Below are positions 25,245 to 57,697 of a stretch of 64,000 nucleotides of DNA, piece after piece. The DNA lies in NCBI GenBank assembly GCA_965223875.1, contig OZ245024.1, positions 2,483,211 to 2,547,210 of the forward strand, read 5' to 3'. Numbering within the stretch: the first letter of the stretch is position 1; every line of letters starts with the position of its first letter. The DNA is from Candidatus Multivoradales bacterium. GTDB lineage: Bacteria > Acidobacteriota > Thermoanaerobaculia > Multivoradales > JAHEKO01. The position numbers and the translations under genes are program-made. The notes under the pieces were generated by a model. It did no database searches. It was not told the origin of the DNA and was given only the letters and a program-made list of their open reading frames with translations.

Positions 25245-25985
25245 ATGATCGAAGCAAAGAACCTGACCAAGACGTTCAAGGACAAGGAGCGCGGAGAGGT
25301 CGTCGCGGTCGACAACCTCTCCTTCAGTTGTAGGCAGGGAGAGGTCTTCGGCCTGCTCGGCCCGAACGGCGCCGGGAAGACCACCACCCTGCGGATCCTC
25401 TCGACGGCTCTCAAACCGACGTCGGGCACCATCATGGTCGATGGGGTCGACGTCGCCAGGGACCCGGGTGAGGTGCGGCGTCGCATCGGCTTCCTGTCGG
25501 GATCGACCGGTCTCTACCCCCGTCTGACACCTCGCGAGATCGCCCGCTACTTCGGGCGGCTCTACGGAATGGCGGACGCCGACATCGATCGACGCACCTC
25601 CGAGCTGTTCGCGCGGCTCGACATGGAGGACTTCGCCGACCGGCGCGCCGACGTGCTGTCCACCGGTCAGAAGCAGAAGGCCTCGATCGTGCGAACGGTC
25701 ATCCACGAGCCACCGATCGTCGTCTTCGACGAGCCCACCTCGGGCCTCGACGTCATGACCTCGCGCGAGATCATCCGGCTCATTCACGAGTGTAGGGAGG
25801 AGGGGCGCTGCGTCGTCTTCTCGACCCACTACATGGCAGAGGCCAACCGGCTCTGCGATCGCATCGCCGTGGTCCACGAAGGAAAGCTGATCGCCGAGGG
25901 CACTCCGGAGGAGGTCCGGCAGCGCTCCGGCGCCGCCGATCTCGAGGAGGCCTTCCTGGCGCTCATCGAGGGGGTGGCGGCATGA
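25245..25985 (+). CDS. ABC transporter ATP-binding protein (NatA-like)
   Basis: Walker A GPNGAGKTT, signature LSTGQKQK, Walker B VVFDEPTSGLD. Confidence 0.9.
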   Translation: MIEAKNLTKTFKDKERGEVVAVDNLSFSCRQGEVFGLLGPNGAGKTTTLRILSTALKPTSGTIMVDGVDVARDPGEVRRRIGFLSGSTGLYPRLTPREIARYFGRLYGMADADIDRRTSELFARLDMEDFADRRADVLSTGQKQKASIVRTVIHEPPIVVFDEPTSGLDVMTSREIIRLIHECREEGRCVVFSTHYMAEANRLCDRIAVVHEGKLIAEGTPEEVRQRSGAADLEEAFLALIEGVAA

Positions 25986-27571
25986 GCCTGCGCAATCTCT
26001 CGATCGTCTTCCGCAAGGAGATCCTCGACATCGTCCGCGATCGGCGCACCCTGATCTTCATGGTCCTGCTCCCGGTCGTCGTCATGCCGGGCATCTTCGG
26101 TCTGATGGGAAAGCTCACCTCGTCGGGCGTTCAGCGCCTGCGCGAGGACACCTCGACGGTCGCCCTCATCGGCGAGGCGAACGCACCGGCGATGGGCCGC
26201 CTCATCCGCGGCCTCGACCAGGCGAGCGGCAACATGGCCTTCTTCATGGAGCTGGCCGATCCGGTCCTCGCCGGTGGTCTGCGGCACATGCTCACCGACG
26301 ACGAGAGCGAGGACATGCGCCTGGCGACCGCGGCCCGCGAGTCGCTCACCGACGACGACCTCGGCGACGCCCGTTTCCTCGACCTGGTCGCCTTCGAGCC
26401 CGCCACCGACAAAGGCCGCGAACTCCTCTCCACCGGCATGCCGACCTTCCTCGCCGACGCCGCGCGAACCCGCCTCGTCGGCTCGGCGATGGTCCTGTTC
26501 GAACAGGGATTCCTCGGTGCCGACGCCGACGCCGAGCCCGATACGGGCCGCCTGGAGGATCTGGGCGTGCTGGCGGACTACGAGCGGATCAGGGCGATGG
26601 ACGCGACCGGGTTCGAGGCGCTCGAGACCGACCTCGACGCGCTCGAGATCTTCGGCCAGGAGCTCACGGCGGCGCTCGAATCGAACCGCTTCCACGCCAT
26701 CCTGGTGCTCCACGAGGGGTTCCACGACGCGCTCCATGCCGACGGCACCGCTCGCTACAGTGTCTTCTACGACGAATCGGTCGACAAGTCGGCCATCACC
26801 GATCGCAAGATCACCCGCTTCCTCGACCGGCTGTCGACCGGCATCGTGCGCTGGCGAGTCGTCGGTCATGACCTCGATGCGACGGTCCTGACCCCGATGC
26901 AGGTGAACGACGTCAATATCGGGCGCGAGCGCAGCATTCTCTCGGTTCTTCTGCCCTACATCGTCATCCTGATGTGCTTTCTCGGCGCGATCTTCCCCGC
27001 CATCGATCTCGGCGCAGGGGAGAAGGAGCGCGGCACCCTCGAGACGCTTCTGGTCACACCCGCCAAACGGACCGAGCTGGTACTGGGCAAGTTCCTCGTC
27101 ATCACGCTCTCGGCCCTGATCGCCGCGATGCTCAACATCGGCAGTCTCACCATGAGCGTCAAGCTCGGCATGATGAAGGCGATGGGCGCGGCGGGAATCA
27201 AGTTCGATCCGATGGCCGTTCTGGTCTCGGCCATCTCGATGCTCCCGGTGGCCGCGCTCTTCGCCGCCGCCCTGCTGGCGATCTCGATCTTCGCGCGCAC
27301 CTACAAGGAGGCGCAGAGCTACACCGGACCGATCCAGTTCGTCGTCATCGTGCCGGCGCTGGTCTCGTTCATGCCCGGCATCGAGCTGACGATCCCGCTG
27401 GCCATGGTGCCGTTGGTCAACGTCTCGCTGGTGCTCAAGGAGGCGTGGTCGGGCATCTTCCAGTGGGACTGCATCGCCGTTCTGCTGATCTCGTCCGCGG
27501 TCTACGCGGCGGCGATGCTCGCCTTCTGCGTGCGCTGGTTCCAGCGCGAGGAGGTGCTCTTCCGGACCTGA
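25982..27571 (+). CDS. ABC-2 family permease (NatB-like)
   Basis: ATGA overlap with the ATPase. N-terminal TM, a large extracytoplasmic loop, then 5 C-terminal TM helices. Confidence 0.75.
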   Translation: MSLRNLSIVFRKEILDIVRDRRTLIFMVLLPVVVMPGIFGLMGKLTSSGVQRLREDTSTVALIGEANAPAMGRLIRGLDQASGNMAFFMELADPVLAGGLRHMLTDDESEDMRLATAARESLTDDDLGDARFLDLVAFEPATDKGRELLSTGMPTFLADAARTRLVGSAMVLFEQGFLGADADAEPDTGRLEDLGVLADYERIRAMDATGFEALETDLDALEIFGQELTAALESNRFHAILVLHEGFHDALHADGTARYSVFYDESVDKSAITDRKITRFLDRLSTGIVRWRVVGHDLDATVLTPMQVNDVNIGRERSILSVLLPYIVILMCFLGAIFPAIDLGAGEKERGTLETLLVTPAKRTELVLGKFLVITLSALIAAMLNIGSLTMSVKLGMMKAMGAAGIKFDPMAVLVSAISMLPVAALFAAALLAISIFARTYKEAQSYTGPIQFVVIVPALVSFMPGIELTIPLAMVPLVNVSLVLKEAWSGIFQWDCIAVLLISSAVYAAAMLAFCVRWFQREEVLFRT

Positions 27572-31515: not shown

Positions 31516-34107
31516 ATGGGAGTCACCTCCGCTCGACCAGGCCGCCTGTTCACGGACCCTCGCCACGGGAAGCGTTCGCTGCCTGGCCCCGCACCCGCAA
31601 GAGTAGAGACCGACGGTAAGCACTTCACGCGAGCCGGCAGACCCCGCCTCATCAAGGGCGTCACATACGGCAGCTTCAAACGTCGCCTCGACGGGGCGCT
31701 CTATCCGCCGACCGAGGTCGTCGAGCGCGATCTGCGCGCCATGGCCGAAGCTGGTGTCAACACCGTCAGGCTCTACACCACACCTCCCGGGGATCTGCTG
31801 GACGCCGCGGACGCCCTCGGCCTCGGCCTGATCGTCGGCATCGACTACCACGACTGGCGCATGGAGCCGGCGACGAACCGGTCCGCCCGCCGTCGTATCG
31901 CACGGGCCGCGAGACGGGAGCTCGATCGAGCTCTCGAGACCTGCGTCGGGCACGCCAGCGTGCTTGCGATCGCCGTCGGCAACGAGGTTCCCGTGGACCT
32001 CGTGCGACTGCACGGCACGCGGCACGTCGAAGACACGCTGAACGAGCTCATCGAGCGCGTCCACACCTTCTGTCCGGACCTCCTGGCGACCTACGTCAAC
32101 TTCCCGACGACCGAGTTTCTGGAGATCGAATCGCAGGACTTCGTCAGCTTCAACGTCTTTCTGGAGGATCCGGAAGCACTGCGCCGGTACCTGAGACACC
32201 TCCAGATAGTCGCCGGCCCGAAGCCGCTGGTCCTCACCGAGCTCGGTCTGGCCGGGGACATCCACGGAGAGGCGACTCAGGCGCAGTCCGTCGCGTCCCA
32301 GCTGACGATCGCCACCGAGACCGGCTGTGCCGGTGCCTGCGTCTTTTCCTGGACCGACGAGTGGGCCGTCGACGACGAGCCCGTCGATGGATGGGGGTTT
32401 GGGCTGACGACGTCGGAGCGCGCGGCCAAACCGGCCCTCGGGGCGTTCTCGAACTGGACCTCTCGCCCGCTGGGCGACCTGAGGCCGCTATGGCCGCGGA
32501 TCTCGGTCGTCGTCTGCGCTCACAACGAGGAGGCGACCATCGAGGAGTGCCTGACCTCACTGGCCGAGACCGACTACCCCGACCTCGAGGTCATCGTCTG
32601 CGTCGACGGCTCCACCGACCGCACCTTCGAGATCGCTTCCCGCTTCCCCTTCCAGGTCTACGACCTGCCCCACGGCGGGCTCAGCCGAGCACGCAATCGG
32701 GGGCTGGCCGCCGCCTCGGGTGAGATCACCGCCTACCTCGACGCCGACGCGGCCTGTCACCCGTACTGGCCGTACTACCTGGCCCTCTCCCTGGAAGACC
32801 CCGAGATCGTGGCCACCGGAGGCCCCAACCTCCCCTTCCCCTCTGCCGGACTCGTCGAAGAGGCCGTGGCCCTGTCGCCGGGAGATCCGGTCGAGGTGCT
32901 GATCGGGGACGATCGCGCCGAGCACGTTCCCGGCTGCAACATGGCGTTCCGAACCGAGGAGCTCGAGGCCGCCGGCGGCTTCAACGTCGCGTGCACCGTC
33001 GCCGGCGACGACGTCGACATCTGCTGGCGCCTACTCGATCGGCAGCGGCAGATCGGCTTTGCGCCGGCTGCCCAGGTACGCCACCACCGCCGGGATCGGA
33101 TCGGACGCTACCTCAGGCAACAGCTCGGCTACGGCAGGGCCGAGAAGATGCTCTCGGGTGCCCATCCCCACAGGTACAACGGGCTCGGCCAGGCGATGTG
33201 GACCGGCTTCGTCTACACCAAGGCGCGTCTCCTGCCGAGTCTCCTCGCGCCGGTGGTCTACCACGGCTACCAGGGGATGGCACCGTTCCAGTCGATCCAG
33301 GGACGGCCCGCTCAAGCCGCCATCGGATGGGTCGGCGCCCGGCTGCCCCTGTTGCTTCCGCTGGCCATCGGTGGCCTCGTGCTCGCACCGATGGACCGGG
33401 CCTGGCTGGCGCTTCCGGTCGTGAGCCTGCTGGTCCTCGCGCTCTACGCGCTCTCGGTTGGCCTCGGACTACGCTCACGCGGTGGAGACGCGCCCTCGCG
33501 ACGCGTTCGAGGGCTTGCCGGTCTGCTCCACGTGGCCCAGCCCTTCGCGAGACTCTGGGGTCGCCTTCGCGGCAAGCCCCTGGAGCCGGTGGATCGGCCC
33601 GTGAGCTGGCAGGGCGATCGATCGCGATGGCTCCAGGTGCTGAAACGGCGGCTCGAGATCGCCGGGGTACGTACGACAGTCGGAGGACCCACCGATGACT
33701 GGGACCTCGAGGCCCGGCACGGGATCTTCCTGACGGCTCGGATCAGCACGGCAGTGGTCTGGAATTGGGAGCCGCGATGGCGGGTGCGGTGGCGTCCTCG
33801 CGGTGGAGCGTTGGCATGGCTCGCGGCAGGAGTGAGCGCCCTGTACCTGGGTGCGACGGCGGCGGGAGCCGTCCTCCTCGGTGGCGGTGCTCTCGCCCTG
33901 CTCGAGCTGCTGTCGCTCCGGCGGGCGATCATCGTCGCCCTCCGCGCATCGACACGCGGAGCCGGAGAGGGCGAAGAGCCCGTGGTCGAAACGACTCCAT
34001 CACGGCCGACCCTGGTCGGAGAGAGCCCGGAGCCCCTGCTCTTCGAACGCTCCGCCTTCTCCACTCGAGACGTGATTCCGGCCGTACAGAAGGCTCACAG
34101 GCGATGA
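31516..34107 (+). CDS. Fusion protein: clan-A-like glycoside hydrolase TIM-barrel + GT2 glycosyltransferase + C-terminal multi-TM region
   Basis: The N-terminal about 300 aa carry NTVRLY, GNEVP (acid/base-like) and TELGLAG (nucleophile-like) motifs. The middle domain carries ISVVVCAHNEE...VCVDGSTD...LDADA...GCNMAFRTEELEAAGGF...DDVDICWRL, typical of GT2. At least 4 TM helices lie in the last about 300 aa. The start is uncertain. Confidence 0.7.
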   Translation: MGVTSARPGRLFTDPRHGKRSLPGPAPARVETDGKHFTRAGRPRLIKGVTYGSFKRRLDGALYPPTEVVERDLRAMAEAGVNTVRLYTTPPGDLLDAADALGLGLIVGIDYHDWRMEPATNRSARRRIARAARRELDRALETCVGHASVLAIAVGNEVPVDLVRLHGTRHVEDTLNELIERVHTFCPDLLATYVNFPTTEFLEIESQDFVSFNVFLEDPEALRRYLRHLQIVAGPKPLVLTELGLAGDIHGEATQAQSVASQLTIATETGCAGACVFSWTDEWAVDDEPVDGWGFGLTTSERAAKPALGAFSNWTSRPLGDLRPLWPRISVVVCAHNEEATIEECLTSLAETDYPDLEVIVCVDGSTDRTFEIASRFPFQVYDLPHGGLSRARNRGLAAASGEITAYLDADAACHPYWPYYLALSLEDPEIVATGGPNLPFPSAGLVEEAVALSPGDPVEVLIGDDRAEHVPGCNMAFRTEELEAAGGFNVACTVAGDDVDICWRLLDRQRQIGFAPAAQVRHHRRDRIGRYLRQQLGYGRAEKMLSGAHPHRYNGLGQAMWTGFVYTKARLLPSLLAPVVYHGYQGMAPFQSIQGRPAQAAIGWVGARLPLLLPLAIGGLVLAPMDRAWLALPVVSLLVLALYALSVGLGLRSRGGDAPSRRVRGLAGLLHVAQPFARLWGRLRGKPLEPVDRPVSWQGDRSRWLQVLKRRLEIAGVRTTVGGPTDDWDLEARHGIFLTARISTAVVWNWEPRWRVRWRPRGGALAWLAAGVSALYLGATAAGAVLLGGGALALLELLSLRRAIIVALRASTRGAGEGEEPVVETTPSRPTLVGESPEPLLFERSAFSTRDVIPAVQKAHRR

Positions 34108-35321
34108 AGACGGTAGCGGCCAACGGCCTCAGCTACCCGCCGGCGGATCGCGGCAGGGTCGTGGTCTGGGGACTGATGGCCTCCCTGCCCTTCGGCGGCA
34201 TGATCTGGCAGGCGCTGCACTACCTCGTCGGTCTGCGGCGTCTCGGCTTCGACGTCTGGTATGTCGAGGATTCCGATCGTGTCGTCTACGACCCGGTGCG
34301 CTTCTGGCCGACCCTCGACTACTCGGCCAACGTCGAGCGGCTCGACGAGCACATGCGAGACGCCGGCCTTGGCGACCGGTGGGTCTTCCGACCCCCCGAG
34401 GTCCACGAGTTCTGTCTGGGTGCGGCCGACGACCCCGCCGCTCTGCAGCGCATCTACGAAAGCTGTGATGCCGCCATCAACCTGTGCGGCGCGCAGGAGA
34501 TGCGTCCTGAGCACCGAGCGATCCCCCGCCTCGTATACCTCCAGACCGACCCGACCGCCGACCAGGTCCGGGTGGCGTGTGGCCGCCGACCCAAGATCGA
34601 GGAGCTCGAGGCATACGACTATCTGTTCACCTACGGCGAGAACATCGGCGACGACGACTGCGGGATTCCGGTCAAGCGCTTCGACTGGCTGACCACGCGC
34701 CCGCCGGTGCTCATGGACTGGTGGGCGAACGGCAACGGAGCCGAGCCCGAGCGCAAGCTGACGACCATCTCCAACTGGAAGCGCTTCCCGAAGAAGAACG
34801 TCACCTGGAAGGGCGAGACCTGGAGCTGGAACAAGCAGGACGAGATCCGCCGCTTCATTACGCTGCCGGAGAGATCGACGCTACCCCTCGAGCTGGCGCT
34901 GGGCGGGGTCGTCAGCGACCGTGAGAAGGACCTGCTGCGCGGCCACGGCTGGCAGGTACGGTCCGCCGCCGAGATCTCGGACGCCGAGGCCTACCGCGCC
35001 TACGTCCGGCACTCGATGGGAGAGCTGACGATCGCCAAGGAGCAGTACGTGATCCCCCGCTCCGGCTGGTTCAGCGACCGGAGCGTCTGCTACCTCGCGT
35101 CGGGTGGTCCCGTGGTCACGCAGAACACCGCCTTCGGCAAGCGCATCCCGACCGGCGAGGGACTGTTCGCGTTCGATGTCGCCGACCAGGCCATCGACGC
35201 CATCGACGAGATCTCCGGCGACTACCGGCGCCACTCGAAGGCGGCCGCGGAGATCGCCGCGGCGTACTTCTCGTGCGACGTGGTCCTTCCGGCGATGCTC
35301 GAGAAGGCAGGGTTGGGCTGA
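34104..35321 (+). CDS. Putative GT-B-fold glycosyltransferase-like protein (unclassified)
   Basis: ATGA overlap with the upstream gene. The N-terminus SLPFGGMIWQALHYLVGLRRLGFDVWYV and the C-terminal SDRSVCYLASGGPVVTQNT resemble GT-B donor-binding elements. Weak assignment. Confidence 0.35.
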   Translation: MKTVAANGLSYPPADRGRVVVWGLMASLPFGGMIWQALHYLVGLRRLGFDVWYVEDSDRVVYDPVRFWPTLDYSANVERLDEHMRDAGLGDRWVFRPPEVHEFCLGAADDPAALQRIYESCDAAINLCGAQEMRPEHRAIPRLVYLQTDPTADQVRVACGRRPKIEELEAYDYLFTYGENIGDDDCGIPVKRFDWLTTRPPVLMDWWANGNGAEPERKLTTISNWKRFPKKNVTWKGETWSWNKQDEIRRFITLPERSTLPLELALGGVVSDREKDLLRGHGWQVRSAAEISDAEAYRAYVRHSMGELTIAKEQYVIPRSGWFSDRSVCYLASGGPVVTQNTAFGKRIPTGEGLFAFDVADQAIDAIDEISGDYRRHSKAAAEIAAAYFSCDVVLPAMLEKAGLG

Positions 35322-36397
35322 TGAGCCGAACGCTTCGCATCGCCCAGATCGCGCCGCTGTGGACCAGTGTGCCGCCAGCCACCTACGGAGGCGCCGAGCT
35401 CATGGTCCACTGGCTGACCGAGGAGCTGGTGAGCCGGGGGCATCAGGTCGACCTGTTCGCTTCCGGCGACTCGGTGACCCGGGCCACGCTGCACTCCGTC
35501 TGCGAACGTCACCTCATCGAGGCGATGGAGCGCGGCGAGGCGCATGTCTACGAGCCCTGGGCGGCGGCCGCGATGGCCGAGGCTCTCGCCAGGGACTCCG
35601 AATACGACGTCATCCACTGCCATCTCGGCGCCTCGATGGCGCCCCTGGGACGGCTGGCTCGCACACCGGTCGTCCATACGATTCACACCGATCTGAAAGC
35701 CGTCGACGAGCTCCGGATCCTCGAGCTCTACCCCGATGTCCCGATCGCCGCCATCAGTGCCTCGCAAGTGAGCGGGCTCCCGGAAGACCGCCGCGGTCCT
35801 TTGCGGATCATCCATCACGGCTGCGATTTCGACACCTACGAGCCGCGGTACGAGGCGGGCGAGCACCTGGCCTTCCTCGGCCGGATGGGACCCCACAAGA
35901 ATCCCGTCGGCGCGATCGACATCGCGCGTGGCGCGGGAATGCCCCTGGTCATGGCGGGCTCGCCGCAGGACGAGGCGGAAGCGGAGTACTTCACCAGGGA
36001 GGTAGAGCCGAGGATCGACGGCGAAACCGTCCTCTGGCTCGGTGACGTCGACCATCCGGCCAAGGTCGATCTGCTCCGCAAGGCCGCGGCACTGCTCTTT
36101 CCGATCGAGTGGGACGAGCCCTTCGGTCTGGTCATGATCGAGGCGATGGCCTGCGGGACGCCGGTGCTGGCCCATCGACGCGGCTCGGTACCCGAGGTCA
36201 TCGAGCACGGCGTTACCGGCTTCCACGCCGAGACTCCGGGCCTGCTCCGCACGCTGGTCGGGAGAACCCGGTCGCTCGATCGTCGCAGGGTGCACGAAGC
36301 GGCCAGGCGCCGTTTCGGCCATCGACGCATGGTCGACGACTACGTCGATCTCTACCGACAACTGGCCACGGGGGTGACGCAGTGGAAGGCCGGGTGA
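35321..36397 (+). CDS. GT4 glycosyltransferase
   Basis: Classic PLWTSVPPATYGGAELMVHWL N-terminus and EPFGLVMIEAMACGTPVLAHRRGSVPEVIEHGVTGF C-terminal motif. Confidence 0.85.
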   Translation: MSRTLRIAQIAPLWTSVPPATYGGAELMVHWLTEELVSRGHQVDLFASGDSVTRATLHSVCERHLIEAMERGEAHVYEPWAAAAMAEALARDSEYDVIHCHLGASMAPLGRLARTPVVHTIHTDLKAVDELRILELYPDVPIAAISASQVSGLPEDRRGPLRIIHHGCDFDTYEPRYEAGEHLAFLGRMGPHKNPVGAIDIARGAGMPLVMAGSPQDEAEAEYFTREVEPRIDGETVLWLGDVDHPAKVDLLRKAAALLFPIEWDEPFGLVMIEAMACGTPVLAHRRGSVPEVIEHGVTGFHAETPGLLRTLVGRTRSLDRRRVHEAARRRFGHRRMVDDYVDLYRQLATGVTQWKAG

Positions 36398-37467
36398 TCG
36401 GCGCCGAGCATCCCGCCGCCGTCGCGTGGCGCAAGCTGGCGGGCTCGGAGGCACGGCCGGACGAGATCGTCGCCTTCGAGCGGCGCTGGAAGAAGCGCCG
36501 GGCACGCCCCGTCTACCGGCTGCAACGGCGGACCGAGCCGGCCTTCGACGTCGTCGCCAAACCCTGCAGGAGCGACGAAGCCCTGCGCACCGCGGTCATC
36601 TACCGGCACCTACTCCCATACGTCCCGATCCGCTGCCCTCACCTGCTCGGTATCGTTCCGGGGGACGCAGACGACCGGTCATGGCTCTTCTTCGAGTGGG
36701 TCGAGGCGATGGAGTACGAACCGGCCGATCGCGCCCATCGTCGACTCGCCGGCCGCTGGCTGGCGACCCTGCACACGACCGCGGCCGAAGTGTGTGGAGG
36801 CACGCGAATCGCCCGACTCGACTATCTGTACGACCTCGACTCACCGGGGCTCCGGGAGCACCTGTCGACGATCGCCGCCCTTCTCGACGACGCTCTCACC
36901 GGCGGCGCCTTCTCCGACGACGATGCGCGGCTGCTGCGCTCCCTCGACGAAGGGCGCGCGGCGCTCGAGCGCCACTGGAGCGCCCTCGAGGACTTCACCC
37001 GCTCGGTCCCGCGAACCCTGGTCCACGGCGACTTCTGCGTCTCCAACATGCTGGTGAGCCACGAGGACCGGCTCGTGGTCTTCGACTGGCAGCGCTCGGG
37101 CTGGGCCAGCCCCGCGTTCGACCTGACCCGATTCCTCGGATCGTGGGCCGACCCCGACCTCGAGGCCTATCTCGACGTCACCGGGCGACACTGGCCCGGC
37201 TTCGATGCCGGGACGGTCCGCCGATTGGCCTACGTCGGCGAGATCCTGCGCTGGGTGGAGGCTGTCCGATGGGACGTGGCGCAGCTCGGCGGCGAATGGA
37301 CCGAGGGTCCACTGAGCCGCCTGCGGGTCTACCAGCGCTGGATGCGCGACATCCTGGAGGCGGCTCCCTGGACCGACGACGCTCCACTCGGCGGATCCGG
37401 CTGGCGCTCGGCCGTCCCCTACGAGCGGCCGGCCCGATTGGCGCCGGGAGCTCCCGTCCACGCATGA
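36382..37467 (+). CDS. APH/choline-kinase-like phosphotransferase (protein-kinase-like fold)
   Basis: GTG start overlapping the GT4 end. Brenner motif LVHGDFCVSNMLV followed by VVFDWQ (DFG-equivalent). Confidence 0.65.
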   Translation: MEGRVIGAEHPAAVAWRKLAGSEARPDEIVAFERRWKKRRARPVYRLQRRTEPAFDVVAKPCRSDEALRTAVIYRHLLPYVPIRCPHLLGIVPGDADDRSWLFFEWVEAMEYEPADRAHRRLAGRWLATLHTTAAEVCGGTRIARLDYLYDLDSPGLREHLSTIAALLDDALTGGAFSDDDARLLRSLDEGRAALERHWSALEDFTRSVPRTLVHGDFCVSNMLVSHEDRLVVFDWQRSGWASPAFDLTRFLGSWADPDLEAYLDVTGRHWPGFDAGTVRRLAYVGEILRWVEAVRWDVAQLGGEWTEGPLSRLRVYQRWMRDILEAAPWTDDAPLGGSGWRSAVPYERPARLAPGAPVHA

Positions 37468-37488
37468 GAGGCCAGGAGTGAGCGATTC

Positions 37489-38646
37489 GTGAGGTCTCCC
37501 GTGCCCCCAGGCATCTCGGCGAGCATCGTCGTCAACAACTACAACTACGGCGCCTTCCTCGCCGAAGCGATCGACAGCGCTCTCGCTCAGACATGGGAGC
37601 ACACCGAGGTGGTCGTGGTGGACGACGGATCGACGGACGACTCCGCCGACATCATCAACGCCTACGGCGATCGAATCGTCCCCGTGCTGAAGGCCAACGG
37701 TGGACAGGGATCGGCTTTCAACGCGGGCTACGCGGCGTCGGCGGGCGATGTCGTCATCTTTCTGGACGCCGACGACAGGCTCCGCCCGACGGCCGTCGAG
37801 GCGGCGGTTCCCCACTTCGCCGACCCGTCGACGGCCACGGTGCAGTGGAGGCTCACGGTGATCAACGCCGAGGGCCGGACGACCCCACAGCTCATCCCAC
37901 GCCGGCGGCCGCCGGTCGGCGACCTCACGCGGGCCGCGGTCGAGCGGGGCCCGGATCAGTTCCGCTGGGCGCCGACCTCGGGTACCGCCTGGTCGCGACG
38001 CTATCTCGAGCGGGTCCTGCCGGCACCCGAGCTCTACCGCCACGGCATCGACTGCTACCTGTTCCAGTTGGTGCCCTACTTCGGCAAGGCGGCGGCTCTG
38101 GAATCCTCCGAGAGCTTCTACCGGCTCCACGGCGCCAACGACAGCCGCACGATCGGCTTCGACAGAAAGCTCCGCCGGCAGGTCAGGTTCTACGACGACT
38201 ACTCGGCACGGGCCCTGGCGGAGTGCACTCGTCGAGGATGGGTCGCCGACCCGGCGCAGTGGAGAGCGAACTCCTGGTGGTGCCGTCTCGACCGGGCCGC
38301 CAGCGAGCTCGACGCGACCCTCGAGCCCGGCGCACCCTTCATCCTCGTCGACGAGAACAGTTGGGGGGTCGACGAGACCTTCAGCGGAAGGCCGGTGATG
38401 CGGTTCGTCGATCGCGACGGCAGGTACTGGGGCCCACCGGCCGACGACGCCAGTGCCGTCGCCGAGATCGAGCGTCTCCGCCAGGCGGGCGCGTCGGCGG
38501 TGGCTTTCGCCTGGAAATCGTTCTGGATGCTCGATCACTACCAGGGTCTCGCCGCCCGCCTGCATGACAACCATACCGTCCGGCTCGACAACGACCACCT
38601 GAAGATCTTCTCGCTCGACCGACGGATCGGAGGCGCCAGCCGATGA
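37489..38646 (+). CDS. GT2 glycosyltransferase with C-terminal about 105-aa domain shared with the downstream sulfotransferase
   Basis: ISASIVVNNYNYGAFLAEAIDSALAQT...VVVVDDGSTDDS...FLDADD (DxD). The C-terminal PFILVDENSWG...YWGPPADD...IERLRQAGASAVAFAWKSFWMLDHY...LKIFSL (about aa 270-377) aligns to aa about 198-306 of the ORF at 39648. Confidence 0.8.
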   Translation: MRSPVPPGISASIVVNNYNYGAFLAEAIDSALAQTWEHTEVVVVDDGSTDDSADIINAYGDRIVPVLKANGGQGSAFNAGYAASAGDVVIFLDADDRLRPTAVEAAVPHFADPSTATVQWRLTVINAEGRTTPQLIPRRRPPVGDLTRAAVERGPDQFRWAPTSGTAWSRRYLERVLPAPELYRHGIDCYLFQLVPYFGKAAALESSESFYRLHGANDSRTIGFDRKLRRQVRFYDDYSARALAECTRRGWVADPAQWRANSWWCRLDRAASELDATLEPGAPFILVDENSWGVDETFSGRPVMRFVDRDGRYWGPPADDASAVAEIERLRQAGASAVAFAWKSFWMLDHYQGLAARLHDNHTVRLDNDHLKIFSLDRRIGGASR

Positions 38647-39632
38647 GACCAGCCCACAAACGCGCCGGTCGCGAGCTCGAGCCCGCCGATCGCGCGGTCC
38701 TTCTGATGGGGCTGGCTCGAGCCCTGAGCAAGGCCGGCCTGGGGCCGGAAGCTCTCGACCTGGCGCCCAACTGCGCGCACTCGCGCTCGGGAAGCTATCC
38801 GAGCTGCACGGCGATCTGCCGGCTGACCCACGGAGGGACCCGGCGCCTGTTCTGCAAGTGCTCGAAGGACTTCGACGCGCCCAGCCATCGACACCGTTCC
38901 GGGGTCGCCTACGAGGCGAGGGTCTACGAACAGCTGGTGAGCCGCTTCGACGGCGCCTCGCCGGAGTACGTGGGTGCGTACGAGGACCACTCCCGCGGCC
39001 TGGCGTTCCTCTTCCTGGAGGAGCTCGAGGGCGTCCTGCGGGTCTCCAAGACAGCGGCCGGAAACATGTCCCGCGCAGCGGCCTGGATCGGCAGGTTCCA
39101 TCGCCGGCACGACCTGGCGCAGGGCGCCGTGCCGGTCTTCCTGACCGTCTACGACCGCGACTACTACACGCAGTGGCCGCGTCGCGCCCTGCGACTGACG
39201 CGCAAGCTCCACGGGCGCTACCCCTGGCTGGGAACCGTCTGCGACGCGTTCGAGAGCGAGATGGTGCCCCTGCTGCTCGCCGCCGCCCAGACGGTCATCC
39301 ATGGGGAGTACTACCCGAAGAACATCCTCGCCAGACGCAGCACGGTCTTCCCCGTCGACTGGGAGTCGACCGCGGTGGGACCGGGCGAGCTCGATCTGGT
39401 CTCGCTGACCGAAGGGTGGCCGGACGAGGACAAGAGAGCCTGCGCGCGCTCCTACCGTGATGCCCGCTGGCCCGACGGCGCACCGGCGAGCCATGCGCCG
39501 GCCTGTCGGGCGGCAGGGATGTACTGGCTGCTCCGCTGGCTCGGCAACGGCAGCTACTTCGCGACCGGAAAGCACGGCGTCCGGCGGCTCAACGAGCTGG
39601 GCGCCCTGGCCGGTCGTCTGGGCTGGATCTGA
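38643..39632 (+). CDS. APH-like phosphotransferase paralog with HGE in place of HGD
   Basis: ATGA overlap with the upstream gene. Motifs VIHGEYYPKNIL and VFPVDWE parallel the first kinase. Confidence 0.55.
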   Translation: MRPAHKRAGRELEPADRAVLLMGLARALSKAGLGPEALDLAPNCAHSRSGSYPSCTAICRLTHGGTRRLFCKCSKDFDAPSHRHRSGVAYEARVYEQLVSRFDGASPEYVGAYEDHSRGLAFLFLEELEGVLRVSKTAAGNMSRAAAWIGRFHRRHDLAQGAVPVFLTVYDRDYYTQWPRRALRLTRKLHGRYPWLGTVCDAFESEMVPLLLAAAQTVIHGEYYPKNILARRSTVFPVDWESTAVGPGELDLVSLTEGWPDEDKRACARSYRDARWPDGAPASHAPACRAAGMYWLLRWLGNGSYFATGKHGVRRLNELGALAGRLGWI

Positions 39633-39647
39633 CCCGGGAGTCCTGAC

Positions 39648-40577
39648 ATGAGACCACTCGAAGATCATCAGAAGGTTCTCGGTATCGGTTTGAGCAAGAC
39701 CGGGACGACGAGTCTGACCACGGCGCTCCAGACGCTCGGGATCGCGACGATCCACAACCCCCACGACGGGCGAACCCAGCGTGAGCTCCAGAGCGGCCAC
39801 CCGCGGCTGAGCGTGCTCGAGGAGTACCAGGCCGTGACCGACATCCCCGTCGCCCCCTACTACCCCCAGCTCGACACGATCTACCCGGGAAGCAAGTTCA
39901 TCCTGACCGTGCGCGACGTCGACTCCTGGATCGTGTCGGCCCGCAACCACTGGCGCCTCATCCCCTCCTGGGAGGCGGACCCCTTCTACGGCTTTCTCCA
40001 TGCCGCCGTGTACGGCTGCCTCGACTTCGACGAGGAGCGTTTCCGATGGGCCTACGAAAGCCATCGTCGCGCGGTGACGCGCTACTTCGCCGGTCGCGAA
40101 GAGGACCTGCTGGTGATGGACATCGTCGGCGGTGACGGCTGGGAGGTGCTCTGCCCGTTCCTCGGTCGCGAGGTCCCGGATACAGCTTTCCCGCACAAGA
40201 ACACCCGCGCCGAGACGGCCGAGTGGGGAGGCCGCCTGCGGCGCACGGTCGAGGAGCTCGAGAGCGCCATCCCGAGAGAGACGCCGTTCATCCTGGTCGA
40301 TGAGCAGGAGTTCGGACGCCTTCTGGTGGACGGCAGGAGGCCGATCCCGTTTCTCGAGAACGGGGGCGAGTACTGGGGGCGCCCGGCGGACGGAGCGAAC
40401 GGCATCGCCGAGCTCGAGCGACTGCGCGACTGCGGCGCCGGGTTCATCGCCTTCGCCTGGCCCGCCTTCTGGTGGCTCGAGTACTACGGCGATCTGCAGG
40501 AGCACCTCGACACGAGGTATCCCTGCGTGATTCGCAACGAACGGTTGGTGGTCTTCGACCTGGTCGCCGAGAACTGA
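39648..40577 (+). CDS. Sulfotransferase-family protein (P-loop/5'-PSB-like KTGTTS motif) + shared C-terminal domain
   Basis: N-terminus VLGIGLSKTGTTSLTTAL (PAPS 5'-phosphosulfate-binding-like loop) within an about 190-aa domain. C-terminal PFILVDEQEFG...YWGRPADG...LERLRDCGAGFIAFAWPAFWWLEYY...LVVFDL is homologous to the GT2 C-terminus. Confidence 0.6.
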   Translation: MRPLEDHQKVLGIGLSKTGTTSLTTALQTLGIATIHNPHDGRTQRELQSGHPRLSVLEEYQAVTDIPVAPYYPQLDTIYPGSKFILTVRDVDSWIVSARNHWRLIPSWEADPFYGFLHAAVYGCLDFDEERFRWAYESHRRAVTRYFAGREEDLLVMDIVGGDGWEVLCPFLGREVPDTAFPHKNTRAETAEWGGRLRRTVEELESAIPRETPFILVDEQEFGRLLVDGRRPIPFLENGGEYWGRPADGANGIAELERLRDCGAGFIAFAWPAFWWLEYYGDLQEHLDTRYPCVIRNERLVVFDLVAEN

Positions 40578-40579
40578 CC

Positions 40580-42406
40580 GTGGACGCCGCCCGACAGCGG
40601 ACGCTCCCCCGTCTGCTCCCCTACGCGGCGCGCCAGAGAGGCGCGCTCATCGTCGTCGTCCTGCTCACCGCGGCGAGCGCCGCCGCGGTCGCGCTGCGAC
40701 CGTGGCCGATGAAGCTCCTGGTCGACTGGGGACTCGGCGACGTGGAGATCCCTTCACGGCTCGAGCGTCTGTTGACCGACTGGGGGCTCTCCTCGAGCCC
40801 CTTCGCGCTCGTCGTCATGGCCGGAGTCGCCAGCCTCGGAGTCCACCTTGTCCACAGCCTCCTGGGTGCCGGCCTCACCATGTCCTGGGCGCGGGCCGGC
40901 CAGCGCATGGTCAACGACCTCTCGGTCGACCTGTTCGCCAGCCTCCAGCGTCGCTCCCTCGGATTCCACTCCCGCCAACCCGTCGGCGATTCCCTGGCGC
41001 GGATCACCGACGATGCCTGGTGTGTCTACACGGTCACGAACGGGCTCCTCATCGCTCCCCTTCAGAAGACCCTGACCGTCGTCGCGATGGGAGTCGCCGC
41101 CTACCTTCTCGACCCGACCCTGGCTCTCCTGGCGCTGCTCATGGCACCCCTGCTGGCTCTCTCGGCCCTCTGGTTCGGCGGCCGACTGAAGCGTCGCGCC
41201 CGCCTCGACCGCGAAGCGCGCTCGCGCCTGTTGAGCTTCGTCCACCAGACGCTCGAGGCCCTGCCACTGGTGAAGGCCTACGCGAGCGAGGACAGGAATC
41301 GCCGCCACTTCGACTCCCTGGCCGACCACTCCGTCCAGGCCACTCAGCTGGGCAGCCTGGTCAACAGCGGCTTCGGCATGGTCAACAGCCTGGTGACGAC
41401 GCTGGGGACGGCGGTGGTCCTGATCGTCGGCGGACACCGAGTGCTCTCCGGCGGAATCACTCTCGGAACACTGCTCGTCTTCATCACATACGTCCGCACC
41501 ATCCAGGCCGCATCGAAGGACCTCTTCTCGACGTTCGCAAAGCTCAAGGCGGCGGAGGCCGCCGCCGAGCGGGTCTTCGACCTCCTGGACGATGGTGACG
41601 CGCTTCACAAAGTCGAGTTGAGCGCCCTACCGAAACCACGTAGGCGCAGTGACAGCCAGGGAGTCTGCGTCCGCCTGGAGGACGTGAGCTTCGGCTACGA
41701 ACCGAGCCATCCGGTCCTTCGAGGCGTCACCCTCGAGGCCCATGCGGGCCAGACCGTGGCCCTGGTCGGGCCGAGTGGGGCCGGCAAGAGCAGCCTGCTC
41801 TGCCTCTTGATGCGCTTCTACGATCCCTGGCAGGGACGAATGCTGATCGACGGGGTCGATGTGAGCGCGGTGCCGCTCCCGGACCTTCGCGAGGGAATCT
41901 CCGTCGCCCTTCAGAGCGACTACCTCCTACCCGTCTCGGTACGCGACAACATCGCCTACGGGCGCCCCGAGGCGGACTTCGAAGAGATCCGTCGGGCGGC
42001 GCGGCTCGCCTGCGCCGACGGCTTCATCTCCAGACTGCCCGACGGATACGACACCCGACTCGCCGAATGGGGCGCGACGCTGTCCGGCGGCGAGCGCCAG
42101 CGGATCGCCATCGCCAGAGCGCTCCTGCGGCAGGCCCCGCTGCTGATCCTCGACGAGCCGACCTCGGCACTCGACGCAGCAACCGAGGAGCGCGTGCTGA
42201 CCAATCTCTCGGGTCTCGAGGGATGCACCACGCTCGTCGTGGCCCACCGCCTGTCGACGATCCGCCGGGCCGATCTCATCGCGTTCCTCGACCAGGGGCG
42301 GGTGATCGAGGTCGGCACGCACGAGGAGCTCACACGGCTCGGCGGGCAATATCACCGCATGTGCACGGCGCAGCGCTTCGCCGCGGCCAGGGAGGACGTC
42401 GCATGA
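40580..42406 (+). CDS. ABC exporter, fused TMD-NBD half-transporter (MsbA-like type I exporter)
   Basis: GTG start 3 bp after the sulfotransferase stop. Six TM helices, then an NBD with GPSGAGKSS, LSGGERQR and ILDEPTSALD. Confidence 0.85.
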   Translation: MDAARQRTLPRLLPYAARQRGALIVVVLLTAASAAAVALRPWPMKLLVDWGLGDVEIPSRLERLLTDWGLSSSPFALVVMAGVASLGVHLVHSLLGAGLTMSWARAGQRMVNDLSVDLFASLQRRSLGFHSRQPVGDSLARITDDAWCVYTVTNGLLIAPLQKTLTVVAMGVAAYLLDPTLALLALLMAPLLALSALWFGGRLKRRARLDREARSRLLSFVHQTLEALPLVKAYASEDRNRRHFDSLADHSVQATQLGSLVNSGFGMVNSLVTTLGTAVVLIVGGHRVLSGGITLGTLLVFITYVRTIQAASKDLFSTFAKLKAAEAAAERVFDLLDDGDALHKVELSALPKPRRRSDSQGVCVRLEDVSFGYEPSHPVLRGVTLEAHAGQTVALVGPSGAGKSSLLCLLMRFYDPWQGRMLIDGVDVSAVPLPDLREGISVALQSDYLLPVSVRDNIAYGRPEADFEEIRRAARLACADGFISRLPDGYDTRLAEWGATLSGGERQRIAIARALLRQAPLLILDEPTSALDAATEERVLTNLSGLEGCTTLVVAHRLSTIRRADLIAFLDQGRVIEVGTHEELTRLGGQYHRMCTAQRFAAAREDVA

Positions 42407-44211
42407 GGACCTGGTGGGTTCGGCTCCTCGGGTACGCCGCCAGGTACTGGGTCGCGATCCTCGGCATTCTGGCACTGCTCCTCACGGGCGCCGGGCTCGG
42501 CCTGCTGACTCCGTGGCCCCTCAAACTGATCGTCGACCATGTCCTGACCGGCGTCGACCTACCCGCCGGGCTTCGCTGGATCGAAGCTCTGCCAGGGGCC
42601 GCCACCCGGCAGGGACAGCTCGTCTGGCTCGCCGCCGCGACGGTCCTGCTGTTCATCGCCGGCCGCGTCGTCGTGATCCTCGAGCGCTACCTGCGCACGG
42701 GCGTGGGCAGCCGGATGGTCTACGCCCTGGCCGGCGATCTGTTCGAGGCCCTGCAGCGCCAATCGCTCCGTTTCCACCACCAGCGCAGCAGAGGTGACCT
42801 GGTTCGCCGCGTCACGGCCGACGCCGCCTGTGCCCGGGAGCTCGTCCTCGACGTCATGGTGCCGCTCGTCGTCTCCGTGGCGACCCTCGTAACGATGTTC
42901 CTCGTCATGTGGCGATTGAGCCGCCCCCTCGCTCTGGTGGCCCTGATGGTGGCGATCCCTCTCGGTCTCGTGGTGCGCCTGTTCGCCTCGCCGATGGCGG
43001 AGCGCAAGCTGCGCAAGAAGGACCTTCAGGGACGGGCGATGGCCGTTGCCGAGCAGACTCTCACCGCCATCCCCCTGGTGCAGGCGTTCGGTCGCGAGGG
43101 TCGGGAGGACGAGAGGTTCCGCCACATCAATGAGCGCATGATCGAGGCCAGCCTTCGCGCCACAGGCATCAAGCTGCAGTTCAAGGTCGTCTGCGGACTC
43201 GTTACCGCCGTGGCCGCGGCGGCGGTCATGGTTCTCGGAGGGACACAGGTCCTGGAGGGCTCCCTGTCCGTCGGAGCGTTACTCGTCCTGCTGCACTACT
43301 TCGCTGCTCTGTACGGCCCGATGGAGAGCCTGGCCTATCTTTCCGACAGCGTCGCCTCGGCATCGGCGGGCGCCACCCGCGTCTTCTCCGTGCTCGACAG
43401 CGAAGAGGAGACGTTGCCCGAGCGGCGGGGCGCGCAAGCCCTCGATCCGGCACGACGCGCGCCCGGGCTCGCCGTCGACTTCGAAGCCGTCACCTTCGGG
43501 TACGACGCGGCAAAGCCGGTACTGCACAGCGTCACGACTCGCATTCAGCCGGGAGAGACGGTCGCCGTCATCGGACCAACCGGCGCAGGGAAGAGCACCC
43601 TCCTCTCGCTCGTTCCCCGCTTCTACGACCCCGACCAGGGACGGATCCGCGTCGGGGGCGAAGATCTTCGGGAGGTGTCTCTGCGCAGCCTCCGATCACG
43701 GGTGACGCTGGTTCTCCAGCAACCGTTCCTCCTGCCGCTGAGCATGGCGGAGAACATCGCCTATGGGCGACCGGGTGCGACGCGACGGGAGATCCGGCGA
43801 GCGGCCCGGCAGGCACGGGCCGATGAGTTCATCGAGCGTCTTCCCGAGGGATACGAGACCATGGTCGGCGAACGCGGCGAGACTCTCTCGGGCGGCGAGC
43901 GGCAGCGCCTGGCGATCGCGCGGGCCATACTGCGGGACACTCCGATCCTTCTTCTGGACGAGCCCACGGCCTCGCTCGACGCCTTCACCGAGAGCGCGTT
44001 GCTCGAGATCCTCGAAGAGCTGATGGCCGATCGCACCTGCATCGTCGTCGCCCATCGCCTCTCGACCGTGCGCTATGCCGACCGCATCCTCGTCCTCGAC
44101 GAAGGTCGTATCCTCGAGGAGGGCACCCCGGCCGAGCTCGAGCGCTCCGGCGGGCTGTACGACCGGGCGCACCGCCTACAGACAACCCGAGGCGGGACAG
44201 GCGGGCGCTGA
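42403..44211 (+). CDS. ABC exporter, fused TMD-NBD half-transporter (second subunit of a putative heterodimer)
   Basis: ATGA overlap with the previous exporter gene. Six TM helices, then an NBD with GPTGAGKST, LSGGERQR and LLDEPTASLD. Confidence 0.85.
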   Translation: MRTWWVRLLGYAARYWVAILGILALLLTGAGLGLLTPWPLKLIVDHVLTGVDLPAGLRWIEALPGAATRQGQLVWLAAATVLLFIAGRVVVILERYLRTGVGSRMVYALAGDLFEALQRQSLRFHHQRSRGDLVRRVTADAACARELVLDVMVPLVVSVATLVTMFLVMWRLSRPLALVALMVAIPLGLVVRLFASPMAERKLRKKDLQGRAMAVAEQTLTAIPLVQAFGREGREDERFRHINERMIEASLRATGIKLQFKVVCGLVTAVAAAAVMVLGGTQVLEGSLSVGALLVLLHYFAALYGPMESLAYLSDSVASASAGATRVFSVLDSEEETLPERRGAQALDPARRAPGLAVDFEAVTFGYDAAKPVLHSVTTRIQPGETVAVIGPTGAGKSTLLSLVPRFYDPDQGRIRVGGEDLREVSLRSLRSRVTLVLQQPFLLPLSMAENIAYGRPGATRREIRRAARQARADEFIERLPEGYETMVGERGETLSGGERQRLAIARAILRDTPILLLDEPTASLDAFTESALLEILEELMADRTCIVVAHRLSTVRYADRILVLDEGRILEEGTPAELERSGGLYDRAHRLQTTRGGTGGR

Positions 44212-50913: not shown

Positions 50914-50923
50914 AGTCTCGACA

Positions 50924-56071: not shown

Positions 56072-57697
<1,626 letters not shown>

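Follow-up and report, generated by a model that had tools for sequence, protein, structure and literature searches.

Systems that assemble a glycan at the cytoplasmic face of the membrane, decorate it and export it through an ABC transporter are known in several forms. In the cyclic beta-glucan systems (Cgs/NdvB(Sm)+ChvA/NdvA of Rhizobiales and Brucella, and the GH17-GT2 NdvB of Pseudomonas and Bradyrhizobium), a membrane-bound synthase combines a glycosyltransferase domain with a GH-type transglycosylase domain, in the Cgs system assembly is cytoplasmic and export is by an MsbA-like ABC transporter, and the products often carry anionic substituents. In the Nod-factor (lipo-chitooligosaccharide) pathway (NodC, NodB, NodL, NodS, NodH, NodIJ), a GT2 enzyme makes an oligosaccharide in the cytoplasm, interchangeable transferases decorate it (acetyl, methyl, sulfate from PAPS) and an ABC system exports it. 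The MsbA/PglK/Wzk-type flippase-dependent glycoconjugate pathways encode type IV ABC half-transporters next to glycosyltransferases working at the cytoplasmic face, while PAPS-dependent sulfation of a glycan or glycolipid, with the sulfotransferase encoded alongside the glycosyltransferases, is seen in the cyanobacterial sulfated exopolysaccharide Xss/synechan cluster (PMC12267927) and in the mycobacterial sulfolipid-1 locus, with Stf0 (PMC11625862).

A locus showing features of each of these is present in Candidatus Multivoradales bacterium (Acidobacteriota), within a window of 64,000 nucleotides (contig OZ245024.1 of assembly GCA_965223875.1, positions 2,483,211 to 2,547,210). A preliminary description, made from the sequence alone, had reported nine co-directional genes at 31516-44211 of this window with five stop/start overlaps, and this observation is confirmed. 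GC3 frame analysis and inspection of start codons give nine genes on the + strand, here G1 to G9, and the five overlaps were read directly from the sequence: G1/G2 ATGA, G2/G3 TGATG, G3/G4 GTGA, G5/G6 ATGA and G8/G9 ATGA. The block G2-GT4-APH-GT2-APH(-sulfotransferase) is conserved in three other lineages (loci L003, L086 and L088) with G1 identity of 63-70%, so that the arrangement is not due to chance. It remains conceivable that the genes are functionally unrelated neighbors, given that APH-family kinases and MsbA-type exporters are classic resistance determinants which could happen to sit next to housekeeping glycosyltransferases. However, this scenario is already disfavored and we consider it very unlikely in view of the five translational overlaps, a gene order that is identical or nearly identical in L003, L086 and L088 at 63-79% protein identity, a C-terminal domain shared between G5 and G7, and the existence of a natural fusion of a G1-type protein and an ABC exporter; in addition, PADLOC found nothing beyond generic ATPase similarity.

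The first gene, G1 (31516-34107, +), encodes an 863-aa putative backbone synthase in which a GH-A-type TIM barrel, a GT2 domain and a C-terminal membrane anchor of about four helices are fused, and for which more than 4,788 homologs were found. Pfam searches returned GT2 with 98 bits and a weak GH2_C TIM-barrel match, but no GH17, GT84 or GH94 match. The N-terminal GH-A-clan domain (31615-32445, about aa 34-310) retains the catalytic pair N156-E157 (acid/base) and E242 (nucleophile, in the motif TELG), residues that are invariant in 26 homologs from several phyla. A profile of this domain searched against PDB matched 9fz9, a "GH2 catalytic domain-containing protein" (2e-21), GH2 glucuronidases (1e-11), GH158 (6e-10) and GH72 beta-1,3-glucanosyltransferases (2e-6), so that it also touches the beta-1,3-glucan families GH158 and GH72, and some JGI annotations of G1 homologs read "GT2/exo-beta-1,3-glucanase (GH17)". 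Hydropathy shows transmembrane segments only at aa 605-654 and 769-809, and with no signal peptide and no transmembrane helix before or after it the GH domain should be cytoplasmic, in contrast to the GH17 domain of NdvB, which is modeled as periplasmic (PMC10237404).

The GT2 (GT-A) catalytic domain of G1 (32491-33225, about aa 326-570) matches PF00535 and PF13641, with invariant residues D364, D409xD411, GPN435-438, GCN473-475, GDDVD497-501 and QQxxYG535-540, and the C-terminal membrane region (33328-33942) comprises two helix pairs flanking a conserved cytoplasmic loop (H672, Q675, P676, R679, R683, W698). Hits to solved structures cover only the generic nucleotide-binding GT-A half of the GT2 domain, which does not resemble BcsA, HAS or NodC-type processive synthases, and polymerization of a backbone by G1 is therefore a guess. 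NodC itself scores 30.6 bits against a cut-off of 550. The closest NCBIfam model is the mycofactocin glycosyltransferase MftF, which glycosylates a small molecule, although at 135.6 bits the score is far below the cut-off of 280.

G2 (34104-35321, +) encodes a 405-aa protein with no Pfam hit and is the signature gene of the system. Its AlphaFold model (AF2, pLDDT 92) predicts a GT-B fold, with Foldseek top hits among GT4 enzymes (ManT 7qsg, BshA, PimA, TreT, HepE) at E about 1e-10. More than 4,320 homologs were found, about 55% identical across phyla, and one to three paralogs occur in many related loci. G3 (35321-36397, +) is a GT4 (GT-B) glycosyltransferase (Glycos_transf_1 81.8 bits, Glyco_transf_4 53.6 bits) and is likewise present in L003, L086 and L088.

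G4 (36394-37467, +) encodes an APH-family kinase (Pfam APH 67.7 bits, E 1.7e-18; EcKL 36 bits) with the canonical HGDxxxxN and DW motifs, and the alignment shows K56, H211-G212, N218 and D231-W232 to be invariant. The APH match is found only in the correct frame, the mechanically called ORF at 36426-37481 being a wrong-frame shadow ORF. Matches of G4 in PDB, to viomycin/capreomycin kinases and macrolide phosphotransferases, are weak. G6 (38643-39632, +) belongs to a second, divergent APH clade (30.9 bits, cut-off 23.2), all six members of which carry HGE(F/Y)YPxN and DW(E/Q); as HGE replaces the canonical HGD, this protein may not be a kinase.

Between the two lies G5 (37489-38646, +), a GT2 glycosyltransferase (103 bits for aa 12-155), while G7 (39648-40577, +) is a PAPS-type sulfotransferase (Sulfotransfer_4, PF17784, aa 9-189, 133.6 bits) in which the 5'-PSB motif GLSKTGTTS and the 3'-PB motif RDVDSWIVS are intact, and whose PDB hits are sulfotransferase 9kf1 (7e-19), Schistosoma SULT-OR and SgdX2. 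No PAPS-synthesis genes lie in the window. The C-terminal 115 aa of G5 are 41% identical to the C-terminus of G7, and define a domain of roughly 110 residues without a Pfam match (C-dom; nt 38272-38616 in G5, nt 40221-40562 in G7). Many tailoring enzymes share it: it is C-terminal in 75 ORFs of 26 loci and occurs in about 3,800 50%-identity clusters, fused to GT2, GT4, methyl-, sulfo- and pyruvyl-transferases and kinase-like domains, which are all enzymes that decorate glycans.

A recognition domain shared by different tailoring enzymes is how RiPP pathways work, and together with the similarity to MftF, and with solved relatives of the APH and Sulfotransfer_4 proteins being antibiotic kinases and small-molecule sulfotransferases, it could point to a natural-product or RiPP-type pathway, in which a peptide or small-molecule aglycone encoded or made elsewhere is glycosylated, phosphorylated, sulfated and then exported by the ABC pair, with the C-dom as the leader- or substrate-recognition element. 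We consider this unlikely. No conserved small ORF was found upstream of or within the operon, no peptide-type enzyme was found, and the operon contains no rSAM, PKS, NRPS, protease or cyclase gene; the ABC proteins lack a peptidase domain, the core conserved across phyla consists only of carbohydrate-active enzymes and exporters, and the C-dom partners include pyruvyl transferases and many glycosyltransferases, which are typical of polysaccharide tailoring. This fits the preference of the preliminary description for a glycan or glycolipid over a RiPP.

The operon closes with two MsbA-type (type IV) ABC half-transporters, G8 (40580-42406, +; ABC_membrane 126 bits, ABC_tran 106 bits) and G9 (42403-44211, +; 133 and 117 bits), translationally coupled by the ATGA overlap. 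In G8 the Walker A, LSGGERQR, Walker B-DE and H-loop motifs are canonical, as are the motifs of G9, and tandem pairs occur in many related loci. The ABC proteins score below the curated cut-offs for NdvA/ChvA (350 against 733 and 268 against 585), MsbA (412 against 602), PglK (151 against 1000) and HepA, and no Wzx/Wzy or Wzm/Wzt component lies inside the operon, so that it does not belong to the canonical loci, in agreement with the preliminary description.

The interpretation put forward in the preliminary description, a candidate pathway for a sulfated and/or phosphorylated glycoconjugate, is supported. All nine family assignments were verified by profile or structure searches, and the refuting condition set beforehand, that the kinase-like and sulfotransferase-like ORFs belong to unrelated families, was tested and does not hold. 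Two corrections are needed, however. The gene mix had been called unusual, but only the tailoring set of two kinases plus a sulfotransferase is, whereas the core of GH-GT2 fusion, GT-B protein and one or two ABC exporters is extremely common across phyla. Of 52 genome loci with enough flanking sequence, 38 have both G1 and an ABC exporter and 45 have an ABC exporter; some loci contain only G1, one ABC exporter and G2, and one protein (P0234) is a natural 1412-aa fusion of a G1-type protein and an ABC exporter. Furthermore, while the operon fails membership of the cyclic-glucan loci, its logic is close to theirs: a synthase with a fused GH-type domain, cytoplasmic assembly and an MsbA-type exporter. 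Known cyclic-glucan loci lack the G2 GT-B protein, the C-dom tailoring enzymes, APH kinases and sulfotransferases.

Comparison with the other systems shows differences in each case. Related loci carry hexapeptide acyltransferases, YdjC and PIG-L deacetylases and sugar epimerases, and the deacetylases, hexapeptide acetyltransferases and methyltransferases, including NodS-like ones fused to the C-dom, resemble the Nod-factor repertoire. Yet NodH belongs to Sulfotransfer_3 and not Sulfotransfer_4, NodIJ is an ABC-2 type transporter and not MsbA-type, there is no NodA-type acyltransferase in the operon, and Nod loci have no fused GH domain, no G2 protein and no C-dom. Compared with the flippase-dependent pathways, the operon has no priming phosphoglycosyltransferase, oligosaccharyltransferase or ligase. 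Xss uses Wzx/Wzy-type export and sulfolipid-1 uses Pks2, PapA and MmpL8; none of these components is present here, and the sulfotransferase families also differ. No description of the gene set was found in the literature searched.

We suggest, with moderate confidence, that the operon encodes a cytoplasmic-face assembly, tailoring and export line for an anionic glycan. The analysis establishes the enzyme families, the conservation of their catalytic motifs, a gene order conserved in four lineages and membership of a widespread system with G1, G2 and one or two MsbA-type exporters as its core; the activities, their order and the product itself are inferred from sequence and predicted structure. 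In this view, G1 would sit in the inner membrane, held by its C-terminal helices, its GT2 domain making the backbone oligosaccharide from nucleotide sugars, while the fused GH-A domain, with its intact retaining Glu/Glu pair, would act on that same chain by trimming, branching or cyclizing transglycosylation, as precedented by the GH-type domains fused to the cyclic-glucan synthases NdvB and Cgs. G2, G3 and G5 would add further sugars, G4 and G6 would phosphorylate hydroxyl groups using ATP and G7 would sulfate one using PAPS, the C-dom of G5 and G7 would bring these enzymes to the common substrate or to the synthase/exporter complex, and the G8/G9 heterodimer would move the finished product across the cytoplasmic membrane. 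That the APH and Sulfotransfer_4 relatives with solved structures act on small molecules, and that the window lacks PAPS-synthesis genes, calls for some caution here.

We favor as product a free, decorated oligosaccharide of the periplasmic-glucan or Nod-factor type, but MsbA-type exporters more often flip lipid-linked substrates than export free glycans, and a membrane-anchored glycolipid or lipid-linked glycan is the main, if more tentative, alternative. In that scenario the GT2 domain of G1 would glycosylate a membrane lipid such as a polyprenyl phosphate, diacylglycerol or similar, the other glycosyltransferases would extend it, the kinases and the sulfotransferase would decorate it, and G8/G9 would flip it to the outer leaflet as MsbA, PglK and Wzk do. 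MsbA_rel, MsbA and PglK are among the NCBIfam hits of the exporters, G1 is predicted to be membrane-anchored, and its GT2 subfamily (Glyco_tranf_2_3, Glyco_transf_21) and weak NCBIfam hits (HpnI, CruG, dolichyl-P transferases) include lipid glycosyltransferases. In related loci, Nostocales add HlyD plus MacB/FtsX genes resembling the DevBCA glycolipid exporter, and the PIG-L and YdjC deacetylases together with hexapeptide acyltransferases recall lipid A and GPI chemistry. Conversely, no polyprenyl-phosphate priming transferase and no acyl- or lipid-synthesis gene is present in the operon, the ABC proteins also score well against the glucan exporter model NF010178 (350 bits), and a cytoplasmic retaining glycosidase domain that is always fused to the synthase is easier to explain if the chain is released or rearranged, as happens in NdvB and Cgs.

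The operon thus represents a rare tailoring variant of a large system found in many phyla, in which the tailoring enzymes vary between loci. On our preferred reading, this variant would build a sugar chain inside the cell, add phosphate and sulfate to it and pump it out.

The 64-kb window is uniformly GC-rich (about 68%), and mechanical ORF lists are therefore full of shadow ORFs. Third-position GC framing and inspection of start codons resolved nine plus-strand genes between 31516 and 44211: G1, a GH-A/GT2/transmembrane fusion (31516-34107), G2, a predicted GT-B-fold protein (34104-35321), G3, a GT4 glycosyltransferase (35321-36397), G4, an APH-family kinase (36394-37467), G5, a GT2 glycosyltransferase (37489-38646), G6, a second and divergent APH-family protein (38643-39632), G7, a Sulfotransfer_4 protein (39648-40577), and the MsbA-type ABC half-transporters G8 (40580-42406) and G9 (42403-44211). 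The preliminary description had reported five start/stop overlaps, and all five are present in the sequence (ATGA, TGATG, GTGA, ATGA and ATGA), so that what had been observed is confirmed. Three long shadow ORFs of 351-655 aa, at 36426-37481 (+), 36841-38598 (-) and 38538-40505 (-), overlap real genes as a result of the high GC content; the first of these lies in the wrong frame relative to G4 and gave no family hit in profile searches, thereby masking the kinase gene.

G1 carries a GT2 domain (98 bits), while its N-terminal domain matches the GH2 TIM barrel only weakly as a single sequence. A profile of 14 sequences of that domain matched the solved “GH2 catalytic domain-containing protein” 9fz9 at 2e-21, as well as GH2 glucuronidases, GH158 and GH72 beta-1,3-glucanosyltransferases. 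Clan GH-A retaining glycosidases and transglycosylases have an Asn-Glu acid/base after strand 4 and a Glu nucleophile after strand 7 of a (beta/alpha)8 barrel; the corresponding residues of G1, Asn156-Glu157 and Glu242 (in “TELG”), are invariant in 26 homologs from several phyla, and in 9g4n an Ala replaces the Glu that in 9fz9 aligns with the “TELG” Glu. On this evidence the domain belongs to clan GH-A, although it was placed in no CAZy family and the barrel fold is inferred from profile similarity. Hydropathy analysis finds membrane segments only at aa 605-654 and 769-809, with no helix before the GH domain or between the GH and GT2 domains, and the glycosidase-like domain is therefore predicted to sit on the cytoplasmic side, next to the GT2 domain. 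This sets G1 apart from the NdvB-type cyclic beta-1,3-glucan synthases, in which a periplasmic GH17 domain (PF00332) is linked to a cytoplasmic GT2 domain through transmembrane helices (PMC10237404); no GH17 Pfam hit was found in G1. A G1 profile searched against PDB did not link the GT2 domain to any processive membrane synthase.

G2 has no Pfam or NCBIfam match, but its AlphaFold model (pLDDT 92) matches GT-B/GT4 glycosyltransferases at about 1e-10. G4, in its correct frame, scores 67.7 bits on the APH family (PF01636; cut-off 23.2) and has the canonical Lys, HGDxxxxN and DW motifs, with K56, HGD211-213, N218 and D231-W232 conserved in the alignment. G6 scores 30.9 bits against the same cut-off; in all six members of its clade, which includes relatives in loci L003, L013, L016 and L060 of the set of related loci described below, the catalytic Asp is replaced by Glu (HGE(F/Y)YPxN; HGEYYPKN in G6), while the ATP-binding Lys and the DW motif are kept. 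To our knowledge no characterized kinase has this change, and kinase activity of G6 remains an inference from family membership. G7 scores 133.6 bits on Sulfotransfer_4 (PF17784; cut-off 22.8), has both PAPS-binding motifs intact (the 5'-phosphosulfate-binding P-loop “GLSKTGTTS” and the 3'-phosphate-binding “RDVDSWIVS”), and is homologous to the solved sulfotransferases 9kf1 and 4mua. The family assignments in the preliminary description are all correct.

G8 and G9 show the general type IV exporter architecture (ABC_membrane plus ABC_tran) with fully canonical ATPase motifs, yet they score below the curated equivalog cut-offs for MsbA (TIGR02203, 412 against 602 bits), PglK (NF050066, 151 against 1000), HepA (NF045513, 365 against 725) and the cyclic-glucan exporters NdvA/ChvA (NF010178, 349.7 against 733; TIGR01192, 267.9 against 585), and no GT84/GH94 synthase is present in the window. 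Pfam searches of all nine proteins showed no Wzx flippase or Wzy polymerase and no Wzm permease or Wzt ATPase. An unrelated ABC-2 type transporter pair (an ATPase plus a 591-aa ABC2_membrane_2 permease) does lie 4 kb upstream at 25149-27571 (+), but it is absent from the orthologous locus L003 and we do not count it as part of the system. The Nod-factor pathway is likewise not matched: the NodC model scores 30.6 bits against a cut-off of 550, the sulfotransferase belongs to a Pfam family other than the Sulfotransfer_3 of NodH, and the exporters are not of the ABC-2 type of NodIJ. A PADLOC search for anti-phage defense systems returned only hits of the ABC ATPase domains to generic models such as mad3 and AriA, and G3 matches GT4-conflict at 25.8 bits, below the cut-off of 26.

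The nine genes form a unit. An ENA contig (L003) has the same nine genes in the same order, with G2 79% and G1 70% identical, and two JGI metagenome contigs also carry the block G2-GT4-APH-GT2-APH; one of these (L086) breaks off after the second kinase, while in the other (L088) the block is followed by a Sulfotransfer_4 gene. This synteny excludes a chance arrangement. In L003 a GNAT gene lies directly upstream of G1, whereas in the window two unrelated genes lie between the corresponding GNAT gene and G1, which supports 31516 as the left border of the unit. Rfam gave no hit in the window and a promoter/terminator scan gave nothing useful; ARAGORN predicts a 94-nt tRNA-Glu(CTC) at 56499-56592 (+) inside a Ser/Thr protein kinase gene on the opposite strand (56072-57697), but as Rfam finds no tRNA there it is probably a false positive. 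Elsewhere in the window, a second small glyco-type block at 7512-12762 (+) encodes a 759-aa protein with no Pfam hit, a 540-aa GT1-family glycosyltransferase and a 398-aa SAM methyltransferase; an IS-type DDE transposase (DUF772, DDE_Tnp_1, DDE_Tnp_1_6) at 15408-16733 (+) is the only obvious mobile element; ankyrin-repeat proteins lie at 53380-54980; and at 57676-63506 (+) a TldD/PmbA metallopeptidase pair is followed by DUF4159, a MoxR-type AAA ATPase and DUF58, which looks like a Bat/aerotolerance-type operon. Two sulfatase genes (PF00884), at 16900-18642 (-) and 50906-52297 (+), could be involved in the turnover of sulfated glycans or could be unrelated.

To place the operon in a wider context, homologs of its first two genes were collected: G2 and G1 gave more than 4,320 and more than 4,788 scored hits, respectively, with identity of about 55% across phyla. 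A scan of one genome per species found 586 relatives of G2, the best 80 loci of which come from Cyanobacteria, Acidobacteriota, Verrucomicrobiota, Chloroflexota, Actinomycetota, Nitrospinota, Planctomycetota, Proteobacteria and others. Of the 52 loci with enough flanking sequence, 38 contain both a G1 homolog and an MsbA-type exporter, these coming from at least ten phyla, and 45 contain an exporter. The usual order is G1, one or two ABC genes, G2, and then often one to three G2 paralogs, while some loci consist of only G1, one ABC gene and G2. One JGI metagenome protein of 1412 aa (P0234) is a natural fusion of a G1-type synthase and an ABC exporter. In the cultured actinomycete Couchioplanes caeruleus (L085, MEIA01000356.1), a possible experimental entry point, the G1 homolog is flanked by an NAD-dependent sugar epimerase, a 453-aa FAD_binding_3 protein and an ABC exporter, with no G2 seen on this short contig. 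We therefore define the core of this so far unnamed system as a GH-A/GT2/transmembrane fusion, a G2-type GT-B protein and at least one MsbA-type exporter in one co-directional block, with tailoring enzymes bearing the shared C-terminal domain described below as optional additions; the window contains all of these.

In contrast to the core, the tailoring genes vary. Two tandem hexapeptide acyltransferases occur in 32 loci, a YdjC-like deacetylase in 19, a PIG-L deacetylase in eight and sugar epimerases in 10, while HlyD plus MacB/FtsX genes were found in 13-14 loci (Nostocales). In these Nostocales loci (e.g., L009 17181-19675 and L040 1-1539) the HlyD and MacB/FtsX genes, which are DevBCA-like, lie downstream of the cluster and a NACHT-associated protein upstream, and a conserved ORF of about 190 aa with no Pfam hit lies between G1 and the first ABC gene and may be a split-off C-terminus of G1. 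APH-like kinases pass the tblastn score threshold in four of the 80 genome-scan loci, and across all 84 loci screened by phmmer G4- or G6-type ORFs turn up in six (L003, L004, L013, L016, L018 and L060). Some of these, from Anaerolineae and Bryobacteraceae MAGs, carry three to five APH-like kinase genes in a row next to G2 (L016 5088-9947 and 15025-16050; L013 6523-9489), suggesting multiply phosphorylated products. The sulfotransferase domain occurs in none of the 80 genome loci. The tailoring set of the window is therefore rare, while its core is very common.

G5 and G7 have different catalytic domains, but their last 115 or so residues are 41% identical. In the related loci this domain (C-dom) is always C-terminal and occurs on up to four proteins per locus. 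A word-indexed homolog search with the C-dom alone returned only 22 short fragments, whereas an exhaustive profile search found it in about 3,800 clusters at 50% identity, with some proteins carrying several copies; one protein of 1486 aa (P0274) has six matched stretches. In a census of 77 such proteins the partner domains were GT2 (19), SAM methyltransferases including NodS- and FkbM-type (at least eight), Sulfotransfer_3 (seven), GT4 (four), Sulfotransfer_1 (three), kinase-like domains (three) and polysaccharide pyruvyl transferase (two). The domain region matched no Pfam model in the scans performed. From its distribution alone we infer that it brings tailoring enzymes either to the common glycan or to the synthase/exporter complex.

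While the families, motifs, synteny, co-occurrence and fusion rest directly on the sequence data, the pathway itself, including its product and donor sugars and the roles of the GH domain and the C-dom, is inferred from them. In this view, G1 would make a backbone chain at the inner face of the membrane, and its fused retaining glycosidase domain would trim, branch or cyclize that chain; the only precedents known to us for a GH-type domain fused to a bacterial glycan synthase are the cyclic-glucan synthases NdvB (GH17-GT2; PMC10237404) and Cgs. G2, G3 and G5 would add sugars, G4 and G6 phosphate and G7 sulfate, with G8/G9 exporting the product, and because the ATP- and PAPS-dependent steps and all the glycosyltransferases are cytoplasmic, decoration would have to come before export. 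We favor a free, decorated oligosaccharide, comparable to a periplasmic glucan or a Nod factor. The main alternative is a lipid-anchored glycolipid flipped by the MsbA-type pair, for which the usual substrates of this exporter class and the lipid-glycosyltransferase relatives of the GT2 subfamily speak. A small-molecule or peptide aglycone is less likely: although MftF is the nearest curated GT2 model, and the solved relatives of the APH and SULT proteins act on small molecules, no scaffold genes or precursor ORF exist, the intergenic region upstream of G1 holds no conserved small ORF, and the conserved core is purely carbohydrate-active, such that the possibility of a RiPP was downgraded.

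The interpretation given in the preliminary description is likewise supported, to which our analysis adds that the operon is a rare sulfation/phosphorylation variant of a very widespread and apparently uncharacterized glycan export system with a new, putative adaptor domain. By the criteria applied above, the operon is not a member of the NdvB, NdvA/ChvA, MsbA, PglK, HepA, NodC, Wzx/Wzy or Wzm/Wzt systems or of the anti-phage defense systems. In the way it would work, the operon is closest to the cyclic-glucan and Nod-factor pathways. ABC-exporter-dependent glycan assembly is itself known, but literature searches on NdvB/GH17, on the PDB entries 9FZ9, 9G5G and 9G4N, on PF17784 and on several combinations of gene content found no paper describing this core or the shared domain, although, given incomplete coverage of the literature, a prior description cannot be excluded. 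A more far-reaching reading, which we regard as possible but tentative, is that interchangeable tailoring enzymes (glycosyl-, methyl-, sulfo- and pyruvyl-transferases and kinases) are recruited to a system spanning many phyla through a previously unrecognized C-terminal adaptor domain of about 110 residues. This would be a docking code for glycan tailoring, comparable to the recognition elements of RiPP pathways, and in the present variant the product would be a new sulfated and phosphorylated, possibly cyclic or branched, oligosaccharide.

If this reading is right, thousands of bacteria make an unrecognized class of exported, decorated glycans, with carriers including Cyanobacteria, Acidobacteria, Verrucomicrobia, Chloroflexi, Actinobacteria, Nitrospinae and Proteobacteria. 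Bacterial sulfated glycans are rare and of biotechnological interest, and a compact nine-gene operon with its own exporter is a practical starting point for heterologous production. The shared C-terminal domain would be a general handle for finding glycan-tailoring enzymes in genomes and would help explain how such enzymes are brought to their substrate, while a cytoplasmic glycosidase fused to a synthase would extend the cyclic-glucan paradigm beyond the Proteobacteria.
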